A DNA stretch of 64,000 bases, from assembly GCA_011773515.1 (NCBI GenBank), contig WVXK01000062.1:68751-132750 (forward strand), written 5' to 3'. The position numbers and the translations under genes were made by a program. This DNA is from Deltaproteobacteria bacterium (lineage in GTDB: Bacteria; Desulfobacterota; Deferrimicrobia; J040). The notes below the pieces were generated by a model. That model had not been told where the DNA came from and made no database searches. It worked only from the letters and a program-made list of their open reading frames with translations. This document shows positions 2,070 through 32,415 of the stretch, in pieces. The number at the start of each line of letters is the position of its first letter. Position 1 is the first letter of the stretch.

Positions 2070-4649
2070 TCAACTCTCAATCGAAAAGCGCAATCCCTCT
2101 TCACCCCGGTCAACGCTGACGACTGCACCTTCGGGGATCTCGCCGGAGATGATCCTGTGAGCGATGACATCGAGCACATGTTTCTGGATAGCCCTTTTCA
2201 GGGGTCTTGCCCCAAACACGGGATCCCATCCGCTCTCCACGATGAACTTCTTTGCACCTCCCGTAAGGTGTATCGATATATTCCTGTCCTTCAGGAGTGC
2301 CTCAACACTTTTGAGCTGAATATCGACAATTTTGACCAGGTCATCCTTTCCAAGGTTTCTGAATAGAACCGTCTCGTCGATCCTGTTGAGAAATTCCGGC
2401 TTGAAATGTCTCTTCAACTCTTCGAGAACCAGTTCTCCGCCCCGGTCAAAATCCTTTTCCGCCCATTCCTGGATTATGTGGCTTCCCACGTTTGACGTCA
2501 TAATTATAACAGTGTTTTTAAAATCCACGGTTCTGCCCTGGTTGTCGGTAAGACGCCCATCATCGAGTACCTGAAGGAATATATCGAAGACGCTCGAGTG
2601 GGCCTTTTCGATCTCGTCGAAAAGTATGACCGTGTAGGGCCTTCTTCTCACCGCTTCCGTCAACTGTCCCCCCTCCTCGTAGCCCACGTATCCGGGCGGA
2701 GCGCCTATCAGCCGGGCCACCGAGTGTTTTTCCATATACTCTGACATGTCGATCCTCACCATCGCGCTCTCTTCATCGAAGAGAAATTCGGCCAGGGCCC
2801 TGGCAAGCTCCGTCTTCCCGACTCCCGTGGGACCGAGAAATACAAAAGATCCTATCGGGCGGCCCGGGTCCTTGAGGCCGGCACGCCCCCTTCTCACGGC
2901 GTTTGAAACAAGTTCCACCGCCTTATCCTGACCGACCACCCGCTCCATGAGCTTTTCCTCCATTTTCAGGAGCTTGATGGACTCCGACTCCAGCAACCTC
3001 GTAACGGGTATCCTCGTCCACGTCGAGACGATTTCCGCAATGTCATCCTCGGTAACCTCCTCCTTCAGAAATCTTCTTTCCCCGGACAACCCCTCGATCT
3101 CTTCCTGCACCCGGCCCAGCTCCCGCATGAGCTCGGGCAAAACTCCGTAATTCAACCTGGATGCCCGCTCGAGGTCACCCTCCCGCTCGGCTATTTCTAT
3201 CTCGTTCTTGTTCGATTCGATCTTTTCTTTGATCTCCTGAACACGGGATATTATCCCCTTTTCTTTTTGCCATTGCCCGGTGAGCTCTTCCATCTCGCCA
3301 CGTAACTTTTGGATCTCCGTTTCAAATCGACCCAGTTTCTCCCGCGATGCGGCGTCATCTTCTCGCGACAGAGCCTTTTTCTCCATCTCGAGCTGCATGA
3401 TCTTCCTCTGGATCTCATCTATTTCGGTCGGTTTGCTGTCAATTTCTATTCTCAGCCTGGACCCTGCCTCATCAATGAGATCGACCGCCTTGTCGGGGAG
3501 AAATCTGTCGGAGATGTAGCGATGGGATAGAACGGCGGCAGCGATCAGGGCCGAGTCCCTGAACCTGACCCCATGGTGAACCTCGTACCGTTCCTTGAGA
3601 CCCCGGAGGATAGCAATGGTGCCCTCGACGGTCGGTTCCGTCACCATGACGGGCTGAAATCTCCGTTCGAGGGCCGGGTCCTTCTCGATGTTTTTCCTGT
3701 ACTCATCGAGAGTCGTTGCTCCGATACATCTCAGTTCCCCCCGTGCAAGGGGGGGCTTCAGCATGTTTGAAGCATCGATGGCCCCTTCGGCACTGCCTGC
3801 CCCAACAACCGTGTGCAGCTCGTCTATGAAGAGGATGATATCCCCCCCGGAATCGACGACCTCCTTGATCACCGCTTTTAGTCTCTCCTCAAACTCACCT
3901 CTGAACTTTGCCCCCGCAACCAGGGCCCCCATGTCAAGGGCTATGATTCTCTTCTCCTTCAGAGACTCCGGCACATCCTTTGCGAGAATCCTCCTTGCAA
4001 GTCCCTCCACGATAGCGGTTTTTCCCACACCGGCCTCACCGATGAGAACGGGGTTATTTTTCGTCCTCCTCGAGAGCACCTGGACTATCCTTCTTATCTC
4101 CTCATCCCTCCCGATTACGGGGTCGAGTTTTCCTGCCCTCGCAAGGTCGGTAAGATCCTTTCCGTATTTTTCCAGTGGCCTGTACCTGTCCTCCGGAGAT
4201 TCATCGGTTATCCGCATGCTCCCCCTCATTTCCGAAAGGGCCTTCAGGACCGCCTCCCTGGATACCCCCTGGCCGGCAAGAATTTTTGCAACGGATCCGC
4301 TCTCCTTATGGATTGCCCCCAGGAGAACGTGCTCGCCGGAAATATATTCGTCATTGAGCGCTTCCATCTCCCGTAAGGAAAGATCGAGCAGTTTTTCCAT
4401 TTCAGGGGTGATGTATTTCTGTGTAACCCCTGAAACCCTGGGAAGTTTTTCGAGCGCCCCGTCAATTTCTGACACGACCCTCTCAGGGGAGATCCCGATT
4501 TTTTTCACGATATCGCGCGCACTGCTCTCTTTTTCGGACAACAAAGCGTGGATCAGATGGGCACTGTCGATGAACTGGTGCCCCCGGGAATCTGACAGGT
4601 TTCTCGCCTTTTCTATGGCTTCCCGTGTTTTTATGGTAAACCTCTCCAT
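2070..4649 (-). CDS. clpB: chaperone ClpB (AAA+ disaggregase)
   Basis: Track ORF 2070..4814; true start ATG at 4647-4649 ([15 protein letters not shown]) preceded by GGAGG RBS. Two AAA+ modules ([13 protein letters not shown]; [12 protein letters not shown]) and the long coiled-coil middle domain typical of ClpB; no ClpP-binding loop. Confidence 0.95.
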
Positions 4650-4703
4650 GCTAATCACTGGAGAAACCTCCTCTTTTTTACCGTCGTCAATTATGAAAAC
4701 AAC

Positions 4704-4735
4704 AAAAAAAAACCCTCCCGGCAGGGCCGGGAGGG
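4704..4735 (-). terminator. rho-independent terminator after degP
   Basis: Minus strand CCCTCCCGGC-CCT-GCCGGGAGGG (perfect 10-bp GC stem) followed by a U9 run, 12 nt after the degP TAG stop. Confidence 0.8.
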
Positions 4736-4746
4736 GCTCGTGCCGG

Positions 4747-6192
4747 CTATTGCTTTTTGACAACCACGTACATTCTCCTTTCCCCTCTCTCGACGAGAAA
4801 AAGAACGCTGTCATCAGCTGAACCCTTTTTCAGGGCTTCCCTGAACTCATTCAAACTCCCGATGCGGTTTCTGTTCACCTGCCTTATGATGTCTCTCTCA
4901 CGAATACCGGCATCATCGGTGGGAGATCCCGACGCCACGCCGGTGACAATCACCCCTTTCATGTCCTCAATCTCCATGTGCTTCGCTATTTCCTCGGTGA
5001 TGTCCTGAACGGTCAGTCCCAGGTCCCCAATAATGTCCGTCTTTGCCATGGTGACCTCTTCGGGCATCTCTCCGAGTTTTACCTCCACAGTCTGCTCTTT
5101 ACCGTCCCTTATTATCCCGACCTTGACCTTCGTGCCAGGTGGGGTATCTGCAACGATGGCAGGGAGTTGCTGCGCATCCTCGATCTTCTTGGCGTTGAAT
5201 TCCTTCAGCACATCTCCCTCTTTCAATCCGGCGCTCTCGGCTGGTGAGTCTTTCATCACCTCCGTGATGATCACCCCGTCCTTGGACTCGAGGTTGAGAG
5301 ATTTCGCCATGTCATCGGTTATGCTCTGCATGTAGATTCCGAGCCACCCCCGAACGACCTTTCCCCGCTCCTTCAGCTGCGCGAAAACGGTCTTGGCCAT
5401 GTTGACGGGTATGGCGAAACCGATCCCCTGCCCACCCTGAACGATGGCTGTGTTGATCCCCACCACTTCTCCCTTCAGGTTGAAGAGGGGACCTCCGCTG
5501 TTTCCGGGGTTGATGGAGGCGTCGGTCTGGATGAAGTCATCGTAGGGTCCCGATCCGATTACCCTTCCTTTCGCGCTCACGATTCCCGTCGTTACCGTGT
5601 GATCGAGGCCGAAGGGGTTCCCTATCGCAACGACCCACTCACCCACTTTCAGAGAATCCGAGTCACCCATCTCCACCGTTGGCAGGGTATCTCCGTTCCT
5701 TATCCGTATAAGCGCTATATCCGTCTTCGGATCGGTCCCTATGATTTCCGCCTCGAACTCCTTCCCGTCGTGCAGCTTCACCGTTATCTCGTCAGCCCGC
5801 TGTACAACGTGACTGTTCGTAAGTATGAACCCGTCTCCCGACACGATAAAGCCCGACCCGAGAGATCGCCTCTTCTGCTCCCTCGGCATCCTGCCGAAAA
5901 AATCCTCGAAAAACTCCTCAAAGGGATCCCGGGAGAAAGGGCTTCTGAATTGCGGCTTTCTGAACTTCACGATGGTCGTGGTGCTGATGTTCACGATGGA
6001 ATCTTTCACCCCCTCTACGAGCTCCGGGATGTTCGTGGGAAGATTGAAGTTGCTTTCTTTCTGTTCGCCGGGCTTCTTCTCGATATAGGCAGCATCCGTT
6101 TTTTCCAGCAATTTTCCATCTTTGCCGTGAATAATCAGCCCAACCAAAATCACCAGTGCCAGAAGGAGCACACCGATTCTTACCTTCCTCAT
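4747..6192 (-). CDS. degP: periplasmic serine endoprotease DegP/HtrA family (trypsin domain + 2 PDZ)
   Basis: 481 aa; signal peptide [19 protein letters not shown]; catalytic motifs [15 protein letters not shown]; two PDZ-like regions; ATG with AAAGGAGGTGG RBS. Confidence 0.9.
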
Positions 6193-6230
6193 CGCAATCC
6201 ACCTCCTTTTATCGGGTAGACGCCCCTCAT

Positions 6231-6713
6231 CTATGGATTATTCGATACGCCCTGCGCAACCTTCACGTAAACCATCCTCAGCTGGGAAAGGTATTCTTTG
6301 ATCAATGAATCTTCTTCCTCGGACAGGTTTCCCCTCGTTTTACGCTCCAGGACCCCGAGAAGGTCGATATATTGCCTGGCAATCTCCAGATTCGGCTCCC
6401 CGGGTGTCATCCCCTCACCTTCGAGCATGCCCAGTGAGGCCAGTGCCTGCATAAAAAAAGACTTCACGATGTCGGTGAAATCGGGTTCGTGGTATCGGGG
6501 GGGGGTCTCCCGGGCGTAATCTCCGCTCCCACCCGTTTTTTCGGCGGGCCCTTCGCTCTTTTTCGGCTCTTGACTCGCGTCTTTTGCCTGCTTGGCCCCC
6601 TCAGCTGCCCTGGACCCCACGGGAGGGACATCGCTTTTTTCTTCCGGTGCGTCCTCTCTTCCGATTCTCCTCTTGTCGATAACCCTGAACCCCTTCTCCT
6701 TCTCATCACCCAT
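6231..6713 (-). CDS. DUF1844-family hypothetical protein, translationally coupled to upstream Clp ATPase
   Basis: 160 aa; Lys/Glu-rich N-terminus then PDFTDIVKSFFMQALASLGMLEG (DUF1844-like core). Its ATG (6711-6713) directly abuts the TAG stop of the ClpA-like gene (TAGATG). Confidence 0.7.
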   Translation of the reverse strand: MGDEKEKGFRVIDKRRIGREDAPEEKSDVPPVGSRAAEGAKQAKDASQEPKKSEGPAEKTGGSGDYARETPPRYHEPDFTDIVKSFFMQALASLGMLEGEGMTPGEPNLEIARQYIDLLGVLERKTRGNLSEEEDSLIKEYLSQLRMVYVKVAQGVSNNP

Positions 6714-8981
6714 CTATACACCAACCTCCTTTTGGTTCACCACGAGATCCCCCTCAACGAGATCGAGGTAAAACATGTCCGACTCATTCCACATGAGCGT
6801 TATCGGGATCTTCACTTTCTCATCTATCGTCCTCTTGAGAAACCGTGCGCCGTATTTGATGCTGAACCCGATTTCAGAGAGAAAACCCAGAGATTCATCC
6901 GAGTACTGGAGGTCCTTTCCGTATTCGGCCATCGTCTTCTTGATCGTTTTCAGGTACATTTCCGCTATTTTCCTCACCTCCTCCATCGGGAGGAACCTGA
7001 AGACGATCACATCGTCAATTCGATTTATAAACTCGGGCGAAAAGCGTTCCTCAACGAGATTTATCACGCTCTTTTTCACCGATTCGTAGTTGGCATCTCC
7101 CACGTCAAAGCCCAGCGGCTTTGTCAGCCTCGAATACTCGCCGGCACCCAGGTTGCTCGTCATGATTATGATCGAATCGCTGAAGTATACCTTTTTGCCC
7201 CTGCCGTCGGTGAGCCACCCTTCATCGAAAACCTGGAGGAAAAGGTTGAGAACGTACTGGTCAGCCTTTTCGATCTCGTCCAGGAGGACCACGGTGTAGG
7301 GGTTGTCTTTTATCTGATTCGTCAAAATCCCGCCTCTCTCGGAGCCGACGATTCCCCGGGGCATGCCGATAAGTTTATCTACCGAGACGGTGCCGTCCCG
7401 GTACTCCGACATATCCACCCTCACCATCTTCTGATCATCACCGAAAAGGCATTGTGACAGCGCCTTTGCCATCTCCGTCTTGCCCACACCCGTCGGCCCC
7501 AGGAAAAGCAGAACGCCGTCCGGCTTGTAATAATTTTCCTTCAGGGGCCCCTTGTTCAGGCGCAGCGCCCTGCCCACGGCCTGGATTGCCTCGATCTGTC
7601 CCACCACTCTCGCCGTAAGGTCCTCCTCGATATGGGCGAACCTGTCCACAACATCCCGCTTGATTATGTCTACCGGTGTCTTGATCTCCTTCGATATCAC
7701 GCCGATGATATCCTCGGATGTGACGACTTTGTCCTTGTTCTCGATTTCAACCCTAACCGCTGCCGTATCGATCCAGTTGATAACCTTATCGGGGAGCCTC
7801 AGCGACCTTGCATATCTCTTGGACATGGAAAGAGCCATCTCTATTGCCTCATCGTCTATCACCACGCCATAATTAGACTCGAGACGGGGTTTGAGGCCGT
7901 AGAGTATCTCCCGCGTTTCCTCTATGGTGGGCTCGTCGATTTTTACGATTCTGAACCTCCTCGACAGAGCCTCGTCTTCCTGGATAATTTCCTTGTATTC
8001 CGTCGTGGTCGTTGCCCCTATCATCTGCACTTCACCCCGCGCCAGGGAGGACTTGAATATGTTCGCCGCATCGGAAGGAACACCCATGGCGGACCCGGCC
8101 CCGATAATTGTGTGGGCCTCGTCGACAAAGAGAATTATGTTCTTTTTCTCTCTGAGCTCATTTATGATCTTCTCGATCCTGTCCTCGAACATACCCCTGA
8201 ATACCGTACCGGCGACAACCGTGTTCATCTGAAGGTTGACCACCTGGTGGCCTCTCAGCCGCGGGGGCACCCTGTGGGGCTCGAACTCGAGGCGCAGCGC
8301 AACGCCCTCCACAACGGCGGTCTTACCCACACCGGGATCCCCCGTAACCATCACCGAATTGCACCTGTCCTTGTGGCAGAGAATTTCGAGAATCATATCG
8401 ATCTCATCTTCCCTTCCGATGACGGGGGGAATTTTTCCCTCCCTTGCCAGCAGGTTCAGGTTCACACCAAAGGTGCGAAGGTTAGTGGGAAGCTCGTATC
8501 TCTTCTTGAGGTCTTCGTATTTTTCCTCCCGCGTCTTCAGGTGCATGCTGAACTTCGAAAGGGCTGCCTGCGGATCGACCCCGTAACTCTTGAAAATTCT
8601 TGCCGGTATCGAATGTGTCTCGTGGAAGATTGCAAGAAAAATATCGGGAGGTTCGATGAGATTTCTCTTGTTCCTCTGTGTGGTTTCCCACGCGATGCGA
8701 AACACCTGTTTCGTCGCAGGGGGGATCTTCATGCCCACACCCAGGTATTGCCGCGAGATGCTCAAGTACTCCTTCAGGCTGTATATTACCGACTCAGGCT
8801 CGAGGCCGACGCTCTTTACCAGGTCCTGAAAGAGCTGCTTTTCAACCCCCGAAAAGGATATGAAGAGGTGTTCGAGCCCGAGGTAGTAGTGATGCCTCTT
8901 CTGGGACTCCTCGATGGCACTTGAAAGCATCTTCTGTGCTTTCTCGGTAAGTCTCTCTCTGTAGAACGCGATCTCCATCAT
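6714..8981 (-). CDS. ClpA/ClpC-family AAA+ unfoldase (Clp_N repeats + two AAA modules + ClpP-docking LGF loop)
   Basis: 755 aa; N-terminal double Clp_N repeat; Walker A GDPGVGKTAVVEG and [13 protein letters not shown]; KPLGFDVG tripeptide loop in D2 consistent with ClpP binding; ATG with GAGGG RBS. Confidence 0.9.
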   Translation of the reverse strand: MMEIAFYRERLTEKAQKMLSSAIEESQKRHHYYLGLEHLFISFSGVEKQLFQDLVKSVGLEPESVIYSLKEYLSISRQYLGVGMKIPPATKQVFRIAWETTQRNKRNLIEPPDIFLAIFHETHSIPARIFKSYGVDPQAALSKFSMHLKTREEKYEDLKKRYELPTNLRTFGVNLNLLAREGKIPPVIGREDEIDMILEILCHKDRCNSVMVTGDPGVGKTAVVEGVALRLEFEPHRVPPRLRGHQVVNLQMNTVVAGTVFRGMFEDRIEKIINELREKKNIILFVDEAHTIIGAGSAMGVPSDAANIFKSSLARGEVQMIGATTTTEYKEIIQEDEALSRRFRIVKIDEPTIEETREILYGLKPRLESNYGVVIDDEAIEMALSMSKRYARSLRLPDKVINWIDTAAVRVEIENKDKVVTSEDIIGVISKEIKTPVDIIKRDVVDRFAHIEEDLTARVVGQIEAIQAVGRALRLNKGPLKENYYKPDGVLLFLGPTGVGKTEMAKALSQCLFGDDQKMVRVDMSEYRDGTVSVDKLIGMPRGIVGSERGGILTNQIKDNPYTVVLLDEIEKADQYVLNLFLQVFDEGWLTDGRGKKVYFSDSIIIMTSNLGAGEYSRLTKPLGFDVGDANYESVKKSVINLVEERFSPEFINRIDDVIVFRFLPMEEVRKIAEMYLKTIKKTMAEYGKDLQYSDESLGFLSEIGFSIKYGARFLKRTIDEKVKIPITLMWNESDMFYLDLVEGDLVVNQKEVGV

Positions 8982-8993
8982 GGCTCTTTACCC

Positions 8994-9851
8994 TCAAGCT
9001 GACGTTCCCGCCATTTTTGACAGCCTCTGTATTCTTTCCTCAAGTGGCGGGTGAGTTGAGAAAAGAGCCCCGAACGCCCTTCGTCCGGAAAAATTGTTGA
9101 CGATAAACAGATGGGATGTGGCCGGGTTCGCCGCGATCGGGCGCGAGGGCCGGTATCCTCCAAGTTTTCTCAATGCGCTTGCAAGGTTCTCGGGTTTCCC
9201 GGATAGCTTCGCTCCTGAGGCATCGGCGAGATATTCCCTGCCCCGTGAGATTCCCAGCTGTATAACCATGGCGGCAATCGGCGCAAAGATCGCCACCGCC
9301 AGCAGCCCGAGAATTCCTCCTTCCCCGTCGTCGTCTCTGCCGCCGATGCCGAATATTGCAGCGAATCGTGCCATGGAGGCGAGCATCATGACTGCGCCGG
9401 CAAGGGTGGCAGCAACTGTCTGTATCAGCGTATCCCGGTTTCTGATATGGGCAAGCTCATGGGCCAAAACGCCCTCTATTTCGTCCTCCGTGAGCAAACC
9501 GAGCAATCCCGTGGTTACTGCCACGGCAGAGTTTTCCGGGTTTCGCCCGGTGGCAAAAGCGTTCGGCGTCGGATTCGGCACCACACACACTTTGGGCATG
9601 GGGAGGCCACCGGCCCGCGTCAATTCCCTTACGATGCGGTACAACTGGGGATACTCACCTTCATCGGCCTCCTTGGCCCTGTACATGCCGAGTACGATCC
9701 TGTCTGAAAACCAGTAGCTTCCGAAGTTAAAGAGAATGGCAAAGACAAAAGCGATGAGCATCCCCTGTCTTCCGCCAAACAAGCTCCCAATAACCAGCAG
9801 AAGGCCCGTCAGGAGGCTGAGAAGTATTGCCGTTCTAAACGTGCTCGTCAT
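8994..9851 (-). CDS. htpX: membrane zinc metalloprotease HtpX (M48)
   Basis: 285 aa, TM helices, HELAHIRNRD (HExxH) motif, typical HtpX length and topology. Confidence 0.9.
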   Translation of the reverse strand: MTSTFRTAILLSLLTGLLLVIGSLFGGRQGMLIAFVFAILFNFGSYWFSDRIVLGMYRAKEADEGEYPQLYRIVRELTRAGGLPMPKVCVVPNPTPNAFATGRNPENSAVAVTTGLLGLLTEDEIEGVLAHELAHIRNRDTLIQTVAATLAGAVMMLASMARFAAIFGIGGRDDDGEGGILGLLAVAIFAPIAAMVIQLGISRGREYLADASGAKLSGKPENLASALRKLGGYRPSRPIAANPATSHLFIVNNFSGRRAFGALFSTHPPLEERIQRLSKMAGTSA

Positions 9852-9896
9852 CTCTGTTCACCCCATTCTTGCATTTTTCGAAACCTGTTCCCCGAT

Positions 9897-10979
9897 CTAC
9901 TCTGAGTACCTACTCCTTATATCATTATCTTCCCATTTTGCCATTTCTTTAACAAGTCTTCTGTACGCCTCGTCCTGATTTCTGGGAAGGACAACCCTGA
10001 CCACGACATACTGGTCACCCCTTCCCCCGCCGCTTTTGTATGCGCCCTTGCCCTTCAACCGTATCTTCTTTCCGCTCTCGGTACCCGGGGGAATCTTCAC
10101 CTTCACCGTGCCGTCTATGGTCGGCACCTCGATCGTGGCCCCGAGAACAGCCTCAGAGTAATTGAGAGGAACTTCCATGAATATATCGAATCCCTCTCTC
10201 TTGAAGAACCGGTGGGCTCCTACCTCGACTTCCAGGTAGAGATCCCCTGAGCCTCCACCAGCTCTGCCCATCTCTCCTTTTCCTGCAACTCTCACCTTCG
10301 TTCCCCTGCTTGCGCCCGGTGGGATTTTGACCTTAATCCTTTCCGAGACATCTTTCATCCCCGCGCCAATGCATGACCCGCAGGGGGAACCGGTAAATCC
10401 TGCCCCCCTGCAACTTTCACAGGGCTGGGCTATACCCAATATCCCTCCCCCGCGCTTCATCCGCCCGCTGCCCCCGCAGGTTGCACAGGTGGATCGGGCA
10501 CCCGCCTGAATTCCTACTCCCCCGCAGTCAGGGCATTCCACGCGCCTTCTGTAGCTCAGCTCCCTTTCGGTCCCCTTTGCCGCCTCCAGAAAAGAGAGTT
10601 CGGCCCTGATCACGAGATCTCTTCCCCGCGTTGGTCCCCACTCACCATGTCCGGAACGCCCGAAAATATCCCCGAATATGTCTCCCAGGTCGAAGGACAT
10701 TCCCCTTCCGCCGGGATAGTCAAACCCTGAAAAACCCTCGAATCCGCCGGAGGAAAAGGCTCCCCTCTTCACGGCATCGTACTGCGCTTTCTTGCTCTCG
10801 TCGGATAGAACATCATGAGCTTCGTTTATTTCTTTGAACTTTTTCTCCGCTTCCTCATTCCCCGGATTTACGTCGGGATGATATTTCTTCGCAAGTCTTC
10901 TGAACGCTCTCTTTATCTCCTCTTTCGTGGCGCTTTCCGGGATGCCAAGTATTTTGTAATAGTCCCTTGAAAAATCCAT
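9897..10979 (-). CDS. dnaJ: chaperone DnaJ
   Basis: 360 aa; J-domain (YYKILGIPESATKEEIKRAFRRLAKKYHPDVN), G/F region, four CxxCxGxG zinc-finger repeats, C-terminal domains. Confidence 0.95.
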   Translation of the reverse strand: MDFSRDYYKILGIPESATKEEIKRAFRRLAKKYHPDVNPGNEEAEKKFKEINEAHDVLSDESKKAQYDAVKRGAFSSGGFEGFSGFDYPGGRGMSFDLGDIFGDIFGRSGHGEWGPTRGRDLVIRAELSFLEAAKGTERELSYRRRVECPDCGGVGIQAGARSTCATCGGSGRMKRGGGILGIAQPCESCRGAGFTGSPCGSCIGAGMKDVSERIKVKIPPGASRGTKVRVAGKGEMGRAGGGSGDLYLEVEVGAHRFFKREGFDIFMEVPLNYSEAVLGATIEVPTIDGTVKVKIPPGTESGKKIRLKGKGAYKSGGGRGDQYVVVRVVLPRNQDEAYRRLVKEMAKWEDNDIRSRYSE

Positions 10980-11020
10980 CCGCCACTTCCTGTCGGTCCA
11001 GCTTTAAGTAAGATGAACCG

Positions 11021-11048
11021 AAAAAAAATAGGGTGCAGATTAAACCCT
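11021..11048 (-). terminator. probable rho-independent terminator between hsp20 and dnaJ
   Basis: Minus strand GAGGGT-ttaatctgc-ACCCT followed by U8; located 12 nt after the hsp20 stop. Short stem, so readthrough into dnaJ is likely. Confidence 0.55.
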
Positions 11049-11059
11049 CAACGCCTGGA

Positions 11060-11512
11060 TTACCCAGCGTTGATGTCTATCTTCTTGGGTCTCACCTCTT
11101 CTTTCTTCGGAAGAATGATCTCGAGGACGCCATCTTTGAACGTAGCCGATACCTTCTCCTGATCAATCTTGGAGTTCAGGGAAAAGGATCTCCTAAAGGA
11201 TCCATACTCGCGCTCCATGAGATGGAAATGCTCCTTGTCCACCTCTTTCTGATACTTCCTCTCGCCCCGTATCGTCAGGATCCCGTCCTTGACCTCGATG
11301 CTTACATCATCCCGGCCTATCCCGGGAAGCTCGGCTGTTACCATCACCTGTGAATCCGTTTCACATATATCCACAGAGGGTGACCAGACGCCTTTTCCCG
11401 GGACATCCTCCTTTTTCCGGGAGCCTCGAAATTTTTCTTCGAAGAGCCTGTTCATCCTGTCCTGAATTAGCGCAAGCTCCCTTAGAGGATCATACCACCT
11501 TACGATAGCCAT
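11060..11512 (-). CDS. small heat-shock protein (Hsp20/alpha-crystallin family)
   Basis: 150 aa; alpha-crystallin domain (AELPGIGRDDVSIEVKDGILTIRGER); AGGAGG RBS 7 nt upstream; only 27 bp downstream of dnaK. Confidence 0.9.
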   Translation of the reverse strand: MAIVRWYDPLRELALIQDRMNRLFEEKFRGSRKKEDVPGKGVWSPSVDICETDSQVMVTAELPGIGRDDVSIEVKDGILTIRGERKYQKEVDKEHFHLMEREYGSFRRSFSLNSKIDQEKVSATFKDGVLEIILPKKEEVRPKKIDINAG

Positions 11513-11539
11513 GACCTGAACCTCCTCTTGTCTTTATCG

Positions 11540-13462
11540 TCATGAACTCGACTTATCCTGATCTTCAAACTCCGCGTCGATAACATCGGAATCGCCCGCC
11601 GCTCCCTCACCGGACGGCTGAGACGCTGTCGCCTCTCCGGCTCCTTCTTCCGGCTCGGCTGTTTTTGCCTGCTTGTACATTATCTCCGCAATCTTGTGGG
11701 CCTCCTTCATCAGCTCGTCTGCAGCAGAGCGAAGGGCGTCTTCGTCATCCGACTTCAGCACTTCTTTTGCCCTGCTCAACCCATCTTCTGCTTTTGAGAC
11801 TTCATCCGGTGGCAGTTCAGAACGGTTCTCGTTCAAAGTCTTCTCTATGTTATAGATGAGGTTGTCGAGATTATTCCTGGCCTCGACGATCCTCCTTTGC
11901 TTTTTGTCCTCTTCAGAGTGAACTTCCGCTTCATCGACCATCCTCTTGATCTCCTCATCGGTTAGTCCCGTAGAGGACGTGACGGTTATCCTCTGTTCCT
12001 TGTTGGTTGCGAGGTCTTTCGCCGAAACATTGAGAATCCCGTTGGCGTCAATGTCGAAGGTCACCTCCACCTTGGGGATTCCCCTGGGTGCCGGGGGAAT
12101 ACCCTCGAGGTGAAATCGACCGAGGGTCCTGTTGGCCCTTGCCATTTCACGTTCACCCTGGAGAACGTGAATCTCCACCGATGTCTGGTTGTCGGCCGCA
12201 GTGGTAAATATCTCGCTCTTTTTGACCGGTATGGTCGTATTTCGCTCGGTAATTTTGGTCATTACGCCCCCGAGTGTCTCTATGCCGAGCGAGAGAGGAG
12301 TAACATCGAGGAGGAGAACGTCCTTGACCTCTCCGCCGAGGACGCCCGCCTGAACCGCCGCCCCGAGGGCAACGACTTCATCGGGGTTCACACCCTTGTG
12401 GGGCTCTTTTCCGAAGAAATTTTTGACCGCCTCCTGAACCTTGGGGATCCTGGTGGAGCCCCCGACGAGAATGATTTCATCGATGTCATCTCCCTTCAAG
12501 TCAGCATCGGAGAGGGCAAGCCTGCAGGGTTCAAGGGTACGCTCAACGATCTGTTCAATCATGGTTTCGAGCTTCGCCCTGGTCAATTTCATGCTGAGGT
12601 GTTTCGGTCCGGAAGCGTCTGCGGTGATAAACGGCAGGTTTATCTCCGTCTCGAGAACAGACGAGAGCTCGATCTTTGCTTTCTCGGCCGCTTCCTTCAG
12701 CCTCTGGAGAGCCATCTTGTCCTTGGACAGGTCTATTCCCTGGTCCTTCCTGAACTCCTCTATGATCCAGTCGATTACCCGCTGATCGATGTTGTCACCG
12801 CCAAGGTGCGTATCCCCGTTGGTCGCTTTCACCTCGACCACATTCTCTCCCACCTCGAGAATGGATATATCGAAGGTACCACCACCAAAATCATACACCG
12901 CTATGACCTCGTTCTTCTTCTTGTCCAGCCCGTATGCCAGTGCTGCAGCGGTGGGCTCGTTGATGATCCTCATCACCTCGAGGCCCGCGATGGTCCCGGC
13001 ATCTTTGGTTGCCTGCCGCTGCGAGTCGTTGAAGTATGCAGGAACGGTGATGACAGCTTTCTTGACCTCCTCGCCGAGATATGCCTCTGCGGCTTTTTTC
13101 AGCTTCCCCAGGACCATGGCCGATATCTGCTGTGGGGTGTAATCCTTGCCTGCAACCAGGATACGAGCGTCGTTGTTCGGCCCGCTCTGTACCTGGTACG
13201 GCACCATCTCTTTTTCTTCCTTTACCTCATCATGGCGCCGTCCCATGAATCGCTTTATCGAAAAGACGGTATTGTCCGGGTTCGTGATTGCCTGTCTTTT
13301 CGCTACCTGCCCGACAAGAACCTGCCCATCCTTTGCGAAAGCAACGACCGACGGGGTCAGCCTGGATCCCTCTTCATTGATGATGACTTTGGGCTCCCCA
13401 CCCTCCATCACCGCGACAACCGACATCGTGGTACCAAGGTCAATACCGATAATCTTTGACAT
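11540..13462 (-). CDS. dnaK: chaperone DnaK (Hsp70)
   Basis: 640 aa; [30 protein letters not shown], full NBD + SBD + lid; GGAGG RBS overlapped by the stop codon of the upstream REC gene. Confidence 0.97.
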
Positions 13463-13478
13463 CGCAAACCTCCGCTCT

Positions 13479-13862
13479 TTATTTTTTGGGCGTTCTGGTA
13501 ATCAACCGTGCGATAAACCGTGAAAGTGTCTCCGGATGGAGGGGCCTGGTGACGAAACCGACGGCACCAGACTCCAGAGCCCGCGTCCACCGCTCCAGAC
13601 TCCCACTTTCAGACATAAAAACCGAGGGGATCGAAGAGGTAATGTCCAGAAGGTTCCCCAGCGGATCATATCCACCGTAGGGTATGTCATCTAGGTCTAT
13701 GAGCGCCATGGAAAACCCGCCTTTTGCCCATTTCTGCCCAAAATCGAGAAGGTCGAGGCAGACCTCGGCTTCGATACCGAAAACACCGAGTTCCTCGACG
13801 AGCTCCCTTATCTCATCTCCCATCTCTTTCCTGCCTACTATGAGCAGAACCCTCGCAAACAT
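13479..13862 (-). CDS. stand-alone atypical receiver (REC/CheY-like) domain protein
   Basis: 127 aa; CheY-like spacing with phosphoacceptor-position Asp (MALIDLDD), Ser at beta4 (VFMSESG), but the acidic Mg-binding pair after beta1 is replaced (IVGRKE) and the beta5 Lys is Arg (VTRPL). GGAGG RBS; TAA stop at 13479-13481 lies inside the dnaK RBS. Confidence 0.75.
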
Positions 13863-13898
13863 TTCGAGATCCTCCAGGTATCCGCGTAGTGATAAGTT

Positions 13899-13913
13899 TC
13901 AAAAGTCATGCCA
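13899..13913 (-). promoter_or_regulatory. weak sigma-54-like -24/-12 element upstream of REC-dnaK (TGGCATG-N4-TTGA)
   Basis: Minus strand aattgTGGCATGacttTTGAaac. -24 GG present; -12 is GA rather than the consensus GC. About 25-nt leader to the REC ATG. Confidence 0.25.
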
Positions 13914-14011
13914 CAATTTGCTTTAGAAAAAAATTAACACAAGATACCGAAAAGAAATGGCTTTTACATTTTATGCCGATGATGGCAATCAGGGAAAGAC
14001 ACCGATGAGGC

Positions 14012-14044
14012 CTGCCAAAATGGCCTGGCGTGTCATTTTGGCAG
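14012..14044. promoter_or_regulatory. perfect 10-bp inverted repeat CTGCCAAAAT-N13-ATTTTGGCAG (candidate enhancer/operator)
   Basis: Seen directly; sits between the 3' end of the sigma-54 activator gene and the REC-dnaK start (~165 bp upstream of REC ATG); half-sites contain TGGCA. Confidence 0.5.
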
Positions 14045-14053
14045 ACCCTTTGC
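14038..14053 (+). promoter_or_regulatory. sigma-54-type -24/-12 motif TTGGCAG-accct-TTGC on plus strand (antisense to activator gene)
   Basis: GG-N10-GC spacing satisfied (GG 14040-41, GC 14052-53); overlaps right arm of the inverted repeat; would fire into the 3' end of the minus-strand activator gene. Confidence 0.3.
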
Positions 14054-14058
14054 CGACC

Positions 14059-15468
14059 TTACGGTAATCCGTATTCCTTGATCTTTCTGTAGAGGGTCCT
14101 CACTCCGATACCCAGCATCTTGGCCGCTTTTGTCTTGTTGTTTCCCGTTGCTTTCAAGGCTTCGATTATGGCATTTTTTTCAACCTCATCCAGCGGAATG
14201 ACCACGGCACCCCCATCGTCTTCAGCGGGGGATTCCACCCTTCCCGCGACGGGTATCGGATCCCTTCCTTCTCTGTACCGCTTTCTTTTGAGTTCGGTCG
14301 GGAGAACCTCTTTGGAGATAACCTCCCCCTCCGTGAGCAGAACCATGGATTCGATCACATTTCTCAACTCCCTCACGTTGCCCGGCCATGGGTACTGCTG
14401 AAAAACCCGCATCGCATCAGCCGAAATCCTCTTCTCCTCGAGACCGTTTTCCCTGCACAGGTTTTTTGTGAAATGGATCGCCAGGGTGGGTATATCCTCG
14501 GTTCTCTCTCTCAAAGGCGGAATATGTATCGTAAAGACGCTCAATCTGAAAAAGAGGTCTTCCCGAAACTTTTTCGACGAAACCAAGCCTCTCAGGTCAG
14601 AGTTCGTAGCGGCCACTATCCTCACGTCAACGTTGATGACCTTGCCTCCTCCGACTCTCAGGATCTCTTTCTGCTCGATTGCCCTGAGAAGCTTCGCCTG
14701 CGTCGAGAGAGTGAGGTCACCAATCTCATCGAGGAAGAGTGTCCCATCGGACGCAATTTCGAATTTTCCCTTTACCGCACCGACTGCGCCGGTGAATGCG
14801 CCTTTTTCATGGCCGAACAGTTCCGACTCAAGAATGCTTTCGGTGAGGGCGGCGCAGTTTATCGGCATAAAAAGTTTATCCTTCCGTGGGCTCATCTCGT
14901 GAATCGCACGCGCAACCAGCTCCTTCCCCGTGCCCGACTCACCGAGAATCAGGACGTTTGCCTTCGTGGGGGCGACCATGCGCACCATCTGCATTACCTT
15001 CTCCATTTCCCGCGACCGGTAGAGAATTTCACCGACTTCGGTTTTAACCAGTCTTCTCAGTGTCCCCAGCTCTTCCATCATCCCCCGAGCTCGAATCGTC
15101 TTGATCAGGACACCTTTCAGCTCTTCCATGTCAATGGGTTTTTGAAGGTAATCCGTCGCCCCTTCTTTGATTGCGTGGACTGCATTTCCGATCGTCCCGA
15201 AAGCCGTGAGGACGATTACCGGAGCGTGAGGATGGGCCTCTTTCACTTTCCTGATTACTTCCATGCCGTCTAAACCCGGCATTTTCATGTCTGTTATGAT
15301 TATGTCGCCCCCGGAATCATCGATGCGGGAGATAAACTCCAGGGGGGAATTGAAAAGCCTCACCTCGAAACCCAGGTTCGTAAGTGCCCTCCCGATGCTC
15401 GTGAGATTTTCTTTGTCATCATCGATAACCGTTACGCTTTTTCCGGAAAATTCCGGGAGCGATTTCAT
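14059..15468 (-). CDS. sigma-54-dependent response regulator (NtrC family: REC + AAA sigma-54 activator + Fis-type HTH)
   Basis: Track ORF extends to 15711 (alt start); true start ATG 15466-15468 (MKSLPEFSGKSVTVIDDDKEN) with GGAGG RBS. Canonical REC (DDD, D in IITDMKMPG, T, K); GESGTGKE Walker A, GAFTGA sigma-54 contact motif; C-terminal HTH AAKMLGIGVRTLYRKIKEYGL. Confidence 0.93.
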   Translation of the reverse strand: MKSLPEFSGKSVTVIDDDKENLTSIGRALTNLGFEVRLFNSPLEFISRIDDSGGDIIITDMKMPGLDGMEVIRKVKEAHPHAPVIVLTAFGTIGNAVHAIKEGATDYLQKPIDMEELKGVLIKTIRARGMMEELGTLRRLVKTEVGEILYRSREMEKVMQMVRMVAPTKANVLILGESGTGKELVARAIHEMSPRKDKLFMPINCAALTESILESELFGHEKGAFTGAVGAVKGKFEIASDGTLFLDEIGDLTLSTQAKLLRAIEQKEILRVGGGKVINVDVRIVAATNSDLRGLVSSKKFREDLFFRLSVFTIHIPPLRERTEDIPTLAIHFTKNLCRENGLEEKRISADAMRVFQQYPWPGNVRELRNVIESMVLLTEGEVISKEVLPTELKRKRYREGRDPIPVAGRVESPAEDDGGAVVIPLDEVEKNAIIEALKATGNNKTKAAKMLGIGVRTLYRKIKEYGLP

Positions 15469-16226
15469 TTCACAACCTCCGGAAGGTACCGCCCCCTCTG
15501 TTTCTTCGCCAACACCTCCCGGAAACTTTCCTCCGGAAGGAAAGAGAGGGTAAACTCCGTCCCCTTTCTCTTCCTGCTCCTTATGCGTACCTTGCCGTGA
15601 TGCTCCCTCATTATCCTCTTCACTATCGGCAAACCCAACCCGCTCCCTTCGGTCTTGGTCGTGTAAAACACCGAGAACACTTTTCCCCTGTCCTTCCTTT
15701 CGATCCCGCAACCGTTGTCCTTGACCTTTACGAAATAGAAATTCTCCTCTTTTCCCGTTGTCACCCTGATCGTCTTGTCCTCCTTGTCAAGCGATTCCGC
15801 AGCGTTTAAAAGCACGTTCAAAAGAGCCTGTTTCACCATTTTTTCATCGACGAGAACAGGAAAAGGAGCCTCGTCGGGCAAGTATCGCACCTTAATGTCC
15901 CTGCCACGAAAGTCGACCTCCACGAACCGGACCACTTCCTCGACAACCCTGTTTAGGTCAGTAACGACAAACTCCGGCTTCTTCGGGCGGGTCAGCCGCA
16001 AAAATTCCGAAACGATGTCGTTGAGCCTGTTCAAAACTCGAAGATTCGAGTCGATGATCTCCTGCATTTCTCCTTTCTTTTCAAACCACTCAGGCAGAAG
16101 AAACGTATATTCCGAGAGAAGCTGATTATTGATGCTCAGCGCATTGAGCGGATTTCGAATCTCATGGGCAATGCCGGACAGAGCCGATTCGAGCTCTTCC
16201 TGGGAAACTTTTTTTTTCCGGGCCAT
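15465..16226 (-). CDS. cytoplasmic histidine kinase lacking any sensor/TM domain (HisKA + HATPase_c only)
   Basis: 253 aa; H-box GIAHEIRNPLNAL begins ~17 aa from the N-terminus; G-boxes DNGCGIE, GSGLGLPIVKRIM. 4-nt overlap (ATGA) with the activator gene. Confidence 0.9.
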   Translation of the reverse strand: MARKKKVSQEELESALSGIAHEIRNPLNALSINNQLLSEYTFLLPEWFEKKGEMQEIIDSNLRVLNRLNDIVSEFLRLTRPKKPEFVVTDLNRVVEEVVRFVEVDFRGRDIKVRYLPDEAPFPVLVDEKMVKQALLNVLLNAAESLDKEDKTIRVTTGKEENFYFVKVKDNGCGIERKDRGKVFSVFYTTKTEGSGLGLPIVKRIMREHHGKVRIRSRKRKGTEFTLSFLPEESFREVLAKKQRGRYLPEVVK

Positions 16227-16270
16227 CAGGCCTCTCCGTATAGATCTCAGTTACCTTAAGGATATATTTT

Positions 16271-16639
16271 TCAAGGATTATTTTCAATCAGGTGGGGGAT
16301 AAAAACATTTTTGATATCGGGAAGATAAATCTTTTCAGCGGGCGTTTCAAGGACCAGTCTCGCTCCTTTTACCGGCAATATAATCCTGTTCGGAGGGATG
16401 TTCCTGATTATCTTCACCACCTCCCCGCTGGATGACACGAAGAAAGCATCTATCCTGAATCTCATGAAAAACGTGTGGATCGAACTGCAGGGAAACAGAA
16501 TCACCGGTTCCCCTACCGTGTGAACTTTCCTGAATGCAAGACCGAAAAACCTCTCAAGGAAAGAGTCAAGAAGACGCGCTTCGACGACCAGGTCCCCCAT
16601 TGAAGAACGGGCCTCTACCGTGACTCTCCCACCGGCCAT
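16271..16639 (-). CDS. DUF192 (COG1430) family protein
   Basis: Track ORF 16271..16741; internal ATG at 16637-39 (MAGGRVTVEAR) chosen because the upstream lipoprotein gene ends at 16662. DUF192-like core (LERFFGLAFR...GEPVILFPCSSIHTFFMRFRIDAFFV). Start uncertain. Confidence 0.65.
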   Translation of the reverse strand: MAGGRVTVEARSSMGDLVVEARLLDSFLERFFGLAFRKVHTVGEPVILFPCSSIHTFFMRFRIDAFFVSSSGEVVKIIRNIPPNRIILPVKGARLVLETPAEKIYLPDIKNVFIPHLIENNP

Positions 16640-16661
16640 ACCAGCCCCCGACTGCGGTCGT

Positions 16662-17201
16662 TCAGAAATAGGTTGCCTCGATGAAGGGAACGAGACCGGT
16701 TCCCAGGTTATCCCCGCCGTCCTCGAGAAAAACGGCTCCATCCCTGGCTTCGAGGCTGATCTGAAAACGGTCCCCCCTTCCCTCCAGCGCGTCGATCAGA
16801 ATATCCGTCACATCGAGAAAGACATAGCTCATCTCATCGGACAGGAAAATCTCGAAGCTTCCCGCGTAGATACCGGACCCCTGGAAGATATCTATCACCA
16901 GCGAGTCTTCAGGAGCAAAGACAGAGTGAACACCGATGAACAGGAAAGCATGCGAAATGAAAGCATGGGGGGGGATGGCGTGAAGGGGGAAGGAAAAAAA
17001 CCCCGTTGAAAAATGACTCTCTACGAGTATCCCGTCGTGAAGGAATATACCCTCGGTATCCACATATCCATCTTCCGAATCGATGCTGACAAGTTCAACG
17101 ACCACGCCATCATCACCATCGAACAGAAACGACCCCTCAACATTGCAGCCGGCAAGCAGAAGGAGCAACGCAACGGGCCCAAGCATCTTTTTCATCTTCA
17201 T
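16662..17201 (-). CDS. acidic lipoprotein of unknown function
   Basis: Track ORF to 17261 (TTG). Likely start MKMKKMLGPVALLLLLAGC (lipobox LAGC) with GGAGG RBS; mature part is Asp/Glu-rich (DGDDGVVVELVSIDSEDGYVDTEG). Coordinates may be off by 1 nt (my line counting disagreed with the track by one base here). Confidence 0.6.
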   Translation of the reverse strand: MKMKKMLGPVALLLLLAGCNVEGSFLFDGDDGVVVELVSIDSEDGYVDTEGIFLHDGILVESHFSTGFFSFPLHAIPPHAFISHAFLFIGVHSVFAPEDSLVIDIFQGSGIYAGSFEIFLSDEMSYVFLDVTDILIDALEGRGDRFQISLEARDGAVFLEDGGDNLGTGLVPFIEATYF

Positions 17202-17353
17202 AGCCCTGACCTCCATGAAAGAGAAGACGGCACGGGCGAAAGCTATATTCACTGAGGGCAACTATATGGTAGCGTATGGCTGGGTGTTATACTATATGCT
17301 GATATGTGCCTTTTTGCTTCACGTGCCACTGAACACATAAGCAGACGGAACGG

Positions 17354-21912: not shown

Positions 21913-21920
21913 GACTCCCC

Positions 21921-22340
21921 CTACACGTCGAGGATGAAGGTTGCCATGTACCCCTCAGCGCTTTTTTCGACCCTCAGGTCATGATAGGTTACCGCTTTAA
22001 TCTCAGTTTTGAGGACATGCCTGCCCTCGTGAAAAGGCTCTCCCCAGGCTTCCGGGCGGTATATACATTCGCCTCTCTCCAGCTTACCGTTTATGGATCT
22101 GATCAGGAAGCCCTCGCCGTAAAACTGAAAATGCACCCACCGCAGAAAGTTAAAGAAGAGATCCTCGATACCCGCGCCTTCTACGAAGGCCTCTTTTTTA
22201 CCGGCTTTCCTGACCCGCCTTCTGTCAACGATGATGCTCACCAGTGACTCCCCTGCCCGGGCAAACAGCTCCTCCAGCGACGCGGCCTCGATGAGAATCT
22301 TGAGGTCCGCCGTGTGGGGAAGGACCTTGTAGCCAGCCAT
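21921..22340 (-). CDS. archease (RtcB activator)
   Basis: 139 aa; MAGYKVLPHTADLKILIEAASLEELFARAGE... matches archease family; 8-nt gap to rtcB. Confidence 0.85.
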   Translation of the reverse strand: MAGYKVLPHTADLKILIEAASLEELFARAGESLVSIIVDRRRVRKAGKKEAFVEGAGIEDLFFNFLRWVHFQFYGEGFLIRSINGKLERGECIYRPEAWGEPFHEGRHVLKTEIKAVTYHDLRVEKSAEGYMATFILDV

Positions 22341-32414: not shown

Positions 32415-32415
32415 C

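Follow-up and report, generated by a model that had tools for sequence, protein, structure and literature searches.

A candidate sigma-54-dependent two-component circuit for a dnaK-led chaperone and protease operon in an uncultured deltaproteobacterial lineage

How would a bacterium control a long run of chaperone and protease genes that stands directly behind genes for a histidine kinase and an NtrC-type sigma-54 activator? The question is raised by 13 minus-strand genes at positions 2070-17261 of the DNA analysed here, a 64,000-nucleotide stretch (the window) of contig WVXK01000062.1 from a deltaproteobacterium (assembly GCA_011773515.1). Textbook heat-shock regulation knows two solutions, an alternative sigma factor (sigma-32) or chaperone-titrated repressors (HrcA, HspR, CtsR). 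A first-pass annotation of the window, reasoning from the adjacency of the genes alone, had proposed that the activator and sigma-54 govern the cluster instead. Our analysis supports that proposal, since a -24/-12 element and a pair of palindromes were located in the spacer between the activator gene and the genes for a small receiver-like protein and DnaK, and both elements are conserved in at least seven lineages. We consider it likely, on evidence drawn throughout from sequence and computation, that a sensor-less kinase and an NtrC-type enhancer-binding protein (EBP) drive one sigma-54-dependent chaperone/protease operon. The gene identities of the first-pass annotation were confirmed by the open reading frame (ORF) listing and by Pfam and NCBIfam matches, but it had spoken of twelve genes where thirteen were listed and thirteen were found.

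The spacer between the activator gene and dnaK

The stop codon of the EBP gene is separated by 196 bp from the gene for the small receiver (REC)-like protein, behind which dnaK follows. This spacer holds two candidate regulatory elements, both correctly oriented and directly upstream of REC-dnaK. One is a -24/-12 element, TGGCAT-N5-TTGA (TGGCATGACTTTTGA; 13899-13913, minus strand), which lies 51 nt 5′ of the ATG of the REC-like gene and is followed by a GGAGG ribosome-binding site; in the 64 kb, TGGCAY-N5-TTG occurs at this single place. The other is a putative enhancer, or upstream activating sequence (UAS), at 14013-14043 on the minus strand, where a 31-bp palindrome splits into two 13-bp palindromes, TGCCAAAATGACA and GGCCATTTTGGCA (TGYCA-N3-TGRCA), whose starts are 18 bp apart. 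The pair is unique in the 64 kb and stands about 105-130 nt 5′ of the -24 element.

The comparison with other genomes drew on homologs of the REC-like protein and their contigs, on two metagenome loci and on three loci reached through the Hsp100 protein of the cluster, which together gave nine loci from at least seven independent lineages. A word-based search for homologs of the REC-like protein (six clusters) had pointed to a very narrow lineage, a reading overturned by the Hsp100-based loci, and a metagenome match at 26% (L094) was set aside as irrelevant. Relative to the window, the EBPs are 49-77% identical, the DnaKs 71-89% and the REC-like proteins 32-96%. The spacers are largely unalignable, and in alignments of five lineages the invariant columns gather at TGGCA...TTG, the ribosome-binding site and the start codon. 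YGGCAY-N5-YTGW starts 39-65 nt 5′ of the start codon of the REC gene, on the coding strand, in nine of nine loci. Three lineages with EBPs 49-64% identical to that of the window have TGGCAC-N5-TTGT, TGGCAC-N5-TTGT and CGGCAC-N5-TTGA at 39-46 nt before the start codon, together with a paired UAS. Sites of the form TGYCA-N3-YGRCR are found 150-185 nt 5′ of the REC-gene start in all loci but L008, where the contig starts only downstream of this point. Measured from the first UAS site, the -24 element is 130, 130, 135, 133, 131, 142 and 132 nt away in seven lineages, within the roughly 80-150 bp expected of upstream activator sites, and the DNA in between is unalignable. The UAS half-sites are conserved, and changes in the central triplet of one site are not compensated in the other, which favours protein-binding sites over an RNA hairpin. 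A reading of the palindrome at 14013-14043 as the terminator of the EBP gene was rejected: no T-run follows it, and elsewhere the two sites are not mutually complementary though their half-sites are kept.

Unrelated control loci amounting to 1.29 Mb contain the promoter motif at a background of 2e-5 per strand position, so that the chance of a correctly placed match in seven lineages would be about 1e-23. The sole co-occurrence of promoter and UAS in these controls (L048, from Desulfobacteraceae Eth-SRB2) lies beside another EBP gene. At 15400-15660 of that locus, TGCCAAACTGGCA is followed after about 117 nt by CGGCAC-N5-TTGC, and the pair of elements stands between a divergent EBP gene and an operon for methylenetetrahydrofolate reductase and a large flavin/FeS oxidoreductase. 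Such a setting marks a genuine sigma-54 unit, which serves as positive control of the signature, and the TGCCA-N3-TGGCA site type may be common to a wider EBP subfamily.

Against a consensus of TGGCAC-N5-TTGCW, in which the GG at -24 and a TGC-type -12 element stand one helical turn apart, no lineage departs from the GG, the CA(Y), the N5 spacing or the TTG, and the -12 position reads TTGA or TTGT, never TTGC (the window, L003, L005, L008, L009, L093, L095, L096 and L097). The validated sigma-54 promoter of E. coli pspA, TGGCACGCAAATTGT, also has TTGT at -12 (PMC2831329), and a base other than C is thus compatible with function; fixed in this clade, it might tune basal leakiness or activator dependence. 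The absence of the canonical -12 C in all lineages, together with UAS half-sites (TGGCA/TGCCA) that look like a -24 element, could also be taken to mean that the TGGCA blocks are operators, bound by a repressor or by the helix-turn-helix (HTH) of an EBP acting independently of sigma-54, and not a promoter with its enhancer. We find this scarcely credible. The downstream block is non-palindromic, has the exact GG-N10-TG spacing of -24/-12 promoters and is suitably placed relative to the ribosome-binding site, and the EBPs of all lineages keep intact GAFTGA and Walker motifs, for which a simple repressor would have no need.

Conventional heat-shock signals were looked for by mismatch-tolerant scans. 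CIRCE (controlling inverted repeat of chaperone expression) has no match at 3 or fewer mismatches in the 64 kb and none at 6 or fewer inside the cluster. HAIR (HspR-associated inverted repeat) has no match at 4 or fewer mismatches upstream of dnaK, dnaJ or clpB; its only match in the cluster spacers is a 4-mismatch site at 16255, between the DUF192 and kinase genes. The earlier statement that neither element precedes these three genes is therefore borne out. A sigma-32-like CTTGAAA-N11-16-CCCCAT, allowing 3 mismatches, was found at no functional position in the cluster spacers: the only spacer match overlaps the REC start codon, and the remaining matches in the cluster lie within coding sequence. 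The first-pass annotation had held that CIRCE- or sigma-32-type promoters at these genes would speak against it, and none turned up at a functional position in the cluster spacers. Rfam returned no thermometer or other cis-regulatory RNA.

These results bear on whether the adjacency of regulators and chaperones is coincidental, the two-component system having other targets and the operon being read from a sigma-70- or sigma-32-type promoter that escaped recognition. These phyla have many EBP genes, none of the best 80 EBPs elsewhere lies beside chaperone genes, and the -12 element is non-canonical. Coincidence is nevertheless very improbable in our judgement: the spacer has no conserved sigma-70 or sigma-32-like hexamer pair, its main conserved blocks are the -24/-12 element and the UAS, which keep a fixed geometry in seven lineages, and the gene order kinase-EBP-REC-dnaK is invariant down to 49% EBP identity.

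The two-component pair and the proposed circuit

The kinase (253 aa; 15465-16226, minus strand) consists, by Pfam and its translation, of HisKA and HATPase_c. The first-pass annotation had described it as having no sensor domain, and this is correct, because the phospho-acceptor histidine is already residue 21, with only 20 residues before the H-box histidine in the translation. The protein is soluble, with no transmembrane or periplasmic part, and its orthologs in L095-L097 have 253-256 aa, a matching architecture and an H-box at residue 21-23.

The stop of the kinase gene and the start of the EBP gene share 4 bp. The EBP (469 aa; 14059-15468, minus strand) combines a receiver, an AAA+ domain and HTH_8, with Pfam scores of 93.6 bits for Response_reg, 228.9 bits for Sigma54_activat and 64.1 bits for HTH_8. 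Its translation has an intact GAFTGA loop, Walker A and B motifs and a canonical receiver with the DD..D..K residues; GAFTGA and Walker motifs are also present in the orthologs of L095-L097. A phospho-Asp receiver, a sigma-54 AAA+ domain and a Fis-type HTH are the features of the NtrC family. The protein fits no named equivalog, since the best, TIGR01818 (ntrC), scores 435 against a cutoff of 558 and other NCBIfam models are also below cutoff. By these profile scores it is a predicted NtrC-family member but not NtrC itself.

The pair had been placed in the middle of the cluster by the first-pass annotation. It instead heads the chaperone operon on the 5′ side, as part of an upstream transcription unit of its own that runs from the lipoprotein gene through the DUF192, kinase and EBP genes. 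A consensus scan places a sigma-70-type promoter of this unit, ATAACA-N18-TATAGT, at 17261-17290 on the minus strand, and in the alignment both hexamer blocks are conserved in four lineages. The surrounding divergent region between the lipoprotein gene and the gene for penicillin-binding protein (PBP) 1 (17230-17300) contains three ATATAG-type repeats and the blocks TATAGTATAACAC and CATATAGTT, also conserved in four lineages. Besides the sigma-70-like promoter, these blocks may include an operator shared with the divergent class-A PBP gene. The sequence TGGCAC-GTGAA-GCAA at about 17318-17332, 5′ of the lipoprotein gene, was rejected as a second sigma-54 site, the spacing from GG to GC being two bases short.

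The first two genes of the unit encode an acidic lipoprotein of 179 aa with the lipobox LLAGC (16662-17201, minus strand; ORF and gene call, no Pfam match) and a DUF192 protein of 122 aa without a signal peptide (16271-16639, minus strand; PF02643 and gene call). Both had been counted as members of the cluster, which holds for the window but not for the conserved block: they are absent upstream of the kinase in L096 and L097, and are therefore not core parts.

From these components we would reconstruct the circuit as follows. The sigma-70-type promoter would supply the soluble, sensor-less kinase and its cognate NtrC-family EBP constitutively. The kinase would phosphorylate the EBP, and the phosphorylated EBP would assemble on the two TGYCA-N3-TGRCA palindromes, where its GAFTGA loop would remodel sigma-54 RNA polymerase at TGGCAY-N5-TTGW. 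One long operon would be driven in this way, comprising the small receiver, dnaK, hsp20, dnaJ, htpX, the ClpA-like gene, DUF1844 and degP, with clpB reached by read-through, and hairpins after hsp20 and degP would grade its output. That output would comprise a holdase (Hsp20), a foldase (DnaK/DnaJ), a disaggregase (ClpB), a ClpA-like unfoldase and the proteases HtpX and DegP for the membrane and periplasm. The REC-like first product, made in proportion to output, would probably damp the kinase-EBP pair, as a phosphate sink where its pocket is intact and as a non-phosphorylatable competitor in the window lineage. Because the kinase has no input domain, its input would probably come through protein-protein contact, such as titration by the operon's own DnaK/DnaJ, or from an intrinsic temperature dependence. 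The dependence on sigma-54 and the EBP, the inducing signal, the feedback role of the receiver and the read-through into clpB are the parts of this circuit that we infer; the gene identities, the promoter and enhancer elements with their conservation and geometry, the co-linearity of the operon and the lack of CIRCE, HAIR and sigma-32 sites are seen directly in sequence and comparison.

The REC-like protein (127 aa; 13479-13862, minus strand) is the first gene product of the operon and scores 24.5 bits as a Response_reg, below the Pfam cutoff of 30.2. In the sub-lineage of the window Asp56 (the phospho-Asp) and Ser84 are kept, G-R-K replaces the acidic pair and RP replaces KP. The orthologs in L095-L097 do score as Response_reg, and those of L096 and L097 retain the Lys, the phospho-Asp and one Asp of the acidic pair. 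The protein probably descends from a true single-domain response regulator and has degenerated in the window lineage. An AlphaFold2 model of the protein was discarded, its mean confidence (pLDDT) being 47.7.

An inducing signal unrelated to temperature, from the envelope or another stress instead of heat or misfolding in the cytoplasm, would suit some of these features, in that the operon carries the envelope quality-control proteases htpX and degP, the regulatory unit of the window sub-lineage begins with a lipoprotein and DUF192, and the kinase itself offers no hint of its input. We think such a signal somewhat unlikely, however, because the lipoprotein and DUF192 do not consistently accompany the module, the kinase is without any membrane or periplasmic part, and seven of the operon products are classical cytoplasmic heat-shock proteins.

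Several points weigh against the sigma-54 circuit. The clade-wide lack of the canonical -12 C is unusual and could mean an altered or weak recognition by sigma-54. A consensus site for integration host factor (IHF) was not consistently found between UAS and promoter across the lineages, and rpoN was not seen in the Pfam tables of the 64-kb window. The REC-like protein of the window lineage is without phosphorylation residues, and feedback as a phosphate sink may not apply here. The sole tie of clpB to the operon is the lack of room for a promoter of its own. Finally, sigma-54 promoters are essentially without basal activity, and a sole housekeeping dnaK under sigma-54 would need constant kinase activity or a second dnaK elsewhere. 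Whether the kinase is always partly active or another dnaK exists decides the significance of the locus.

The operon and its conservation

All genes of the operon lie on the minus strand. Behind the REC-like gene stand dnaK (640 aa; 11540-13462), which exceeds two NCBIfam equivalog cutoffs (1017 against 648 and 982 against 823), the small heat-shock gene hsp20 (11060-11512; Pfam HSP20) and dnaJ (360 aa; 9897-10979), assigned by Pfam, NCBIfam and its four CxxCxGxG motifs. The membrane zinc protease gene htpX (285 aa; 8994-9851; NCBIfam HtpX, Pfam M48) spans positions 1-280 of the 285-position NCBIfam HtpX profile. This nearly complete coverage supports the longer start; the gene call of the metagenome-assembled genome (MAG) has 255 aa and seems 30 residues short. 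After a divergent class-I Hsp100 gene (6714-8981) and a DUF1844 gene (6231-6713; PF08899) come degP/htrA (4747-6192), for a Do-family periplasmic serine protease with two PDZ domains (TIGR02037, 517 against 416), and the disaggregase gene clpB (862 aa; 2070-4658; NCBIfam equivalog, 1313 against 1232). A 914-aa clpB ORF reaching up to 4814 was rejected as an over-extension that would overlap degP.

The Hsp100 protein (755 aa) is ClpA/ClpC-like by its NCBIfam scores and motifs and lies below the equivalog cutoffs (ClpA TIGR02639, 594 against 993; ClpB, 606 against 1232). It has two Walker A motifs, no M-domain and an LGF tripeptide at residues 623-625, the position of the ClpP-docking loop in ClpA. 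These features suggest that it is probably a ClpP-partnering unfoldase; no gene for clpP or clpS was found in the window. In L092 and L095-L097 alike, the Hsp100 gene is invariably followed by that for DUF1844, and one might speculate that the DUF1844 product is an adaptor of the Hsp100.

The genes of the operon are closely spaced, with gaps of 16 nt (REC-dnaK), 27 nt (dnaK-hsp20), 80 nt (hsp20-dnaJ), 45 nt (dnaJ-htpX), 12 nt (htpX-Hsp100), 0 nt (Hsp100-DUF1844, where the start codon at 6713 abuts the end of the Hsp100 stop at 6714) and 38 nt (DUF1844-degP). Two hairpins interrupt this run. One, followed by a T-run, lies after hsp20 at 11021-11049 on the minus strand, and the stem-loop is present in the window, L092, L095 and L096. 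The other is a strong terminator-like hairpin between degP and clpB (4703-4735, minus strand) with a 10-bp stem of which 9 pairs are GC and a T9 run; compensatory changes occur in the stem, and in the alignment the stem-loop is at the matching position in five lineages. We infer that both hairpins grade expression of the operon, as internal attenuators or as mRNA-stabilising ends. The hsp20-dnaJ spacer (10980-11059; 3881-3965 in L092) is 87% identical although the flanking proteins are only 69-74% identical, and a conserved block past the hairpin, TTTTTCGGTTCATCTTA, might serve as a promoter within the operon or as a site of RNA processing.

The stretch from the second hairpin to the start codon of clpB measures about 45 nt in the window and about 22 nt in L096, and is not conserved. 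A promoter of its own for clpB was sought in these 22-45 nt, which yielded only weak, non-conserved -10-like hexamers, and clpB is probably expressed, at least in part, by read-through.

L092, L095 (GCA_964429585.1), L096 (a 2.04-Mb contig of ERZ25039600) and L097 (JGI 3300035523) share the whole block from kinase to clpB in co-linear form, in the order kinase-EBP-REC-dnaK-hsp20 (one or two copies)-dnaJ-htpX-Hsp100-DUF1844-degP-clpB. In the window the minus-strand run continues past clpB with ispE, spoVG and others, and in L095, L096 and L097 the block is likewise followed, co-linearly, by ispE-spoVG-prs-rplY-pth-rpsF-ssb-rpsR-rplI. The check by comparative genomics that the first-pass annotation had suggested, whether the block recurs in relatives, thus comes out in its favour. 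Minor variants are two tandem hsp20 genes in L096 (7021-7993) and a 660-bp GC-rich, repeat-like hsp20-dnaJ spacer in L097 (7360-8018).

The Hsp100 of L097 is named Candidatus Deferrimicrobiaceae by NCBI, and across MAGs of the Deferrimicrobiaceae type the protein is conserved at 70-82%; the candidate phylum Candidatus Deferrimicrobiota has no cultured models. A distant relative, L098, whose Hsp100 is 63% identical, has only dnaK-dnaJ-Hsp100 and no two-component genes. Chaperone genes stand beside the EBP gene in none of the best 80 EBP matches from other phyla or species, and among the matches listed the EBPs outside the clade are at most 47% identical and are generic NtrC-family paralogs. Because L098 lacks the two-component genes and the best 80 outside EBPs are not beside chaperones, the arrangement appears to be a clade-specific rewiring. 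The first-pass description of the cluster as lineage-specific and assembled as one unit agrees with this, the block being co-linear in the relatives and absent in L098 and beside those outside EBPs. In L098 itself dnaK is preceded by a near-consensus sigma-70 promoter, TTGACA-N17-TATATT (7040-7160), and the dnaK-dnaJ-clpA-like genes lie directly behind cytochrome bc-type genes, with a Usp gene in the place of DUF1844.

No grpE, hrcA, rpoN, rpoH or groESL gene was found in the window by the Pfam tables, which cover about 1540-64000 except 44947-47010, a gap taken up by the 5′ region of alaS, a short spacer and the first part of a T2SSE ATPase gene. These tables were taken from contig JABAOE010000068.1 (306 kb) of MAG GCA_012974925.1, with the window coordinate being the record coordinate minus 55150. 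The earlier remark that the window contains neither grpE nor hrcA is confirmed in this way, and their absence from 64 kb tells nothing about the remaining genome.

It is quite possible, if short of likely, that the sigma-54 module governs only an auxiliary, stress-specialised set of chaperones and that a conventional hrcA-grpE-dnaK (CIRCE) and/or rpoH regulon exists elsewhere. This alternative fits the promoter mechanism but alters its significance. Since grpE is not in the cluster in any lineage, at least one essential partner of DnaK is encoded and regulated elsewhere, and the established lack of basal activity of sigma-54 promoters points the same way. In addition, some orders formerly placed in the deltaproteobacteria commonly have dnaK paralogs (PMC11019930), and rpoH was present in six of six deltaproteobacterial genomes, with hrcA/CIRCE in all except Desulfotalea psychrophila (PMC545781). 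Against an auxiliary role, DnaK, ClpB and DegP pass curated equivalog or subfamily cutoffs and resemble canonical orthologs, the genes form a single block in a conserved housekeeping neighbourhood (ispE-spoVG-prs-rplY-pth-rpsF) in all lineages, and the syntenic dnaK-dnaJ-clpA-like group of L098 has a strong sigma-70 promoter, as would be expected of a main copy.

The sigma-54 circuit could also be given a wider meaning, which we think distinctly doubtful: that in Deferrimicrobiota, at least those of the Deferrimicrobiaceae type, classical chaperone control has been replaced by a self-contained phosphorelay, in which the bare kinase, reduced to its dimerization/histidine-phosphotransfer (DHp) and catalytic (CA) domains, is itself the proteotoxic or thermal sensor, for example by DnaK/DnaJ titration, with a CheY-like negative feedback. 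If true, this would be a third general heat-shock architecture, two-component and enhancer-dependent, beside alternative sigma factors and repressors of the HrcA/HspR/CtsR type.

Precedents and neighbouring genes

The regulatory logic had been called undescribed in the first-pass annotation, which is an overstatement, as there are precedents in HsfB/HsfA-lonD, in E. coli pspA and ibpB and in predicted sigma-54 promoters of chaperone genes. In Myxococcus xanthus, HsfB/HsfA activates the heat-shock gene lonD (Ueki & Inouye, J Biol Chem 277:6170; listed and assayed in PMC3892784). The two systems share a kinase and an NtrC-family sigma-54 activator for a heat-shock gene, so that positive control replaces sigma-32/HrcA. 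The target there is a single Lon protease gene, whereas here it would be a dnaK-led operon of 8-9 genes without lon, and no small receiver gene is known to head the lonD target. HsfB carries a receiver domain, whereas the kinase described here is bare DHp and CA. The likeness is one of architecture and target class, not of direct sequence comparison.

E. coli pspA and ibpB have sigma-54 stress or heat-shock promoters, and the -12 element of pspA is TTGT, a form also seen in some of our lineages. The first gene of the psp operon, pspA, is a negative regulator of the activator (PMC2831329), a parallel to the feedback role proposed for our REC-like gene. PspF differs in having neither a receiver domain nor a kinase, being controlled by the binding of PspA; the psp operon answers to membrane stress and carries no chaperones, and the REC-like protein is unrelated to PspA. 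The dnaK gene of E. coli is sigma-54-independent and serves as a negative control (PMC2831329). Sigma-54 promoters have been predicted with position-specific scoring matrices at groEL, groES, ibpA, grpE, dnaJ and dnaK in Planctomycetota and Bacteroidota (PMC12316311). These and the ibpB promoter resemble the present case in placing -24/-12 promoters ahead of heat-shock chaperone genes; they are isolated promoters, beside which no dedicated kinase/EBP pair is described, whereas here activator, enhancer, promoter and proteostasis set form one conserved unit.

The studied deltaproteobacteria use sigma-32 and HrcA/CIRCE, with hrcA-grpE-dnaK-dnaJ in Geobacter and a 'dnaJ-?-clpA' operon in Desulfovibrio (PMC545781). 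The operons of Geobacter, Desulfuromonas and Desulfovibrio are like ours in being multi-gene dnaK/dnaJ operons and, in Desulfovibrio, in the order dnaJ, one gene, then clpA-like. They differ in that the present locus has no hrcA, grpE, CIRCE or sigma-32-like promoter and has an activator instead of a repressor or an alternative factor of the sigma-70 family. A literature search found no description of a kinase/EBP pair that is encoded in cis with a dnaK-led proteostasis operon and apparently drives it.

What the locus offers is a dedicated kinase/activator pair together with a putative enhancer, a predicted sigma-54 promoter and almost the complete quality-control kit of cytoplasm and envelope in one portable, conserved unit of an uncultured phylum. 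It opens the questions of how a sensor-less kinase perceives proteotoxic stress and how an essential chaperone is kept expressed from a promoter class without basal activity. It also raises that of how the circuit was rewired, the nearest outgroup having its dnaK-dnaJ-clpA-like genes behind a plain sigma-70 promoter. Being compact, the module could also be reconstructed in E. coli to give a synthetic switch that responds to stress.

Other genes of the window are noted briefly. An operon for the RNA ligase RtcB, an archease and a metallophosphoesterase lies at 20464-23080 on the minus strand with no RtcR-type sigma-54 activator nearby, and the RtcB operon adjoins the cluster also in L001, L003 and L005. 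At 31425-33216, again on the minus strand, a gene for an archaeal-type 3-dehydroquinate synthase (PF01959) adjoins one for a DeoC-family aldolase, which suggests the alternative (ADH/DKFP) entry into the shikimate pathway. On the plus strand, 50373-53298 encodes a HEAT-repeat protein (522 aa) and then, overlapping, a protein of the HD-GYP type (HD_5); cyclic-di-GMP signalling is a possible role for these genes, and a second protein of this kind, with sCache, HAMP and HD_5 domains, is encoded just past the end of the window. The only Rfam gathering-score match in the window is a tRNA gene at 734-804 on the minus strand, which lies downstream of ispE and the spoVG-like ORF at 829-1110 and overlaps a spurious plus-strand ORF.

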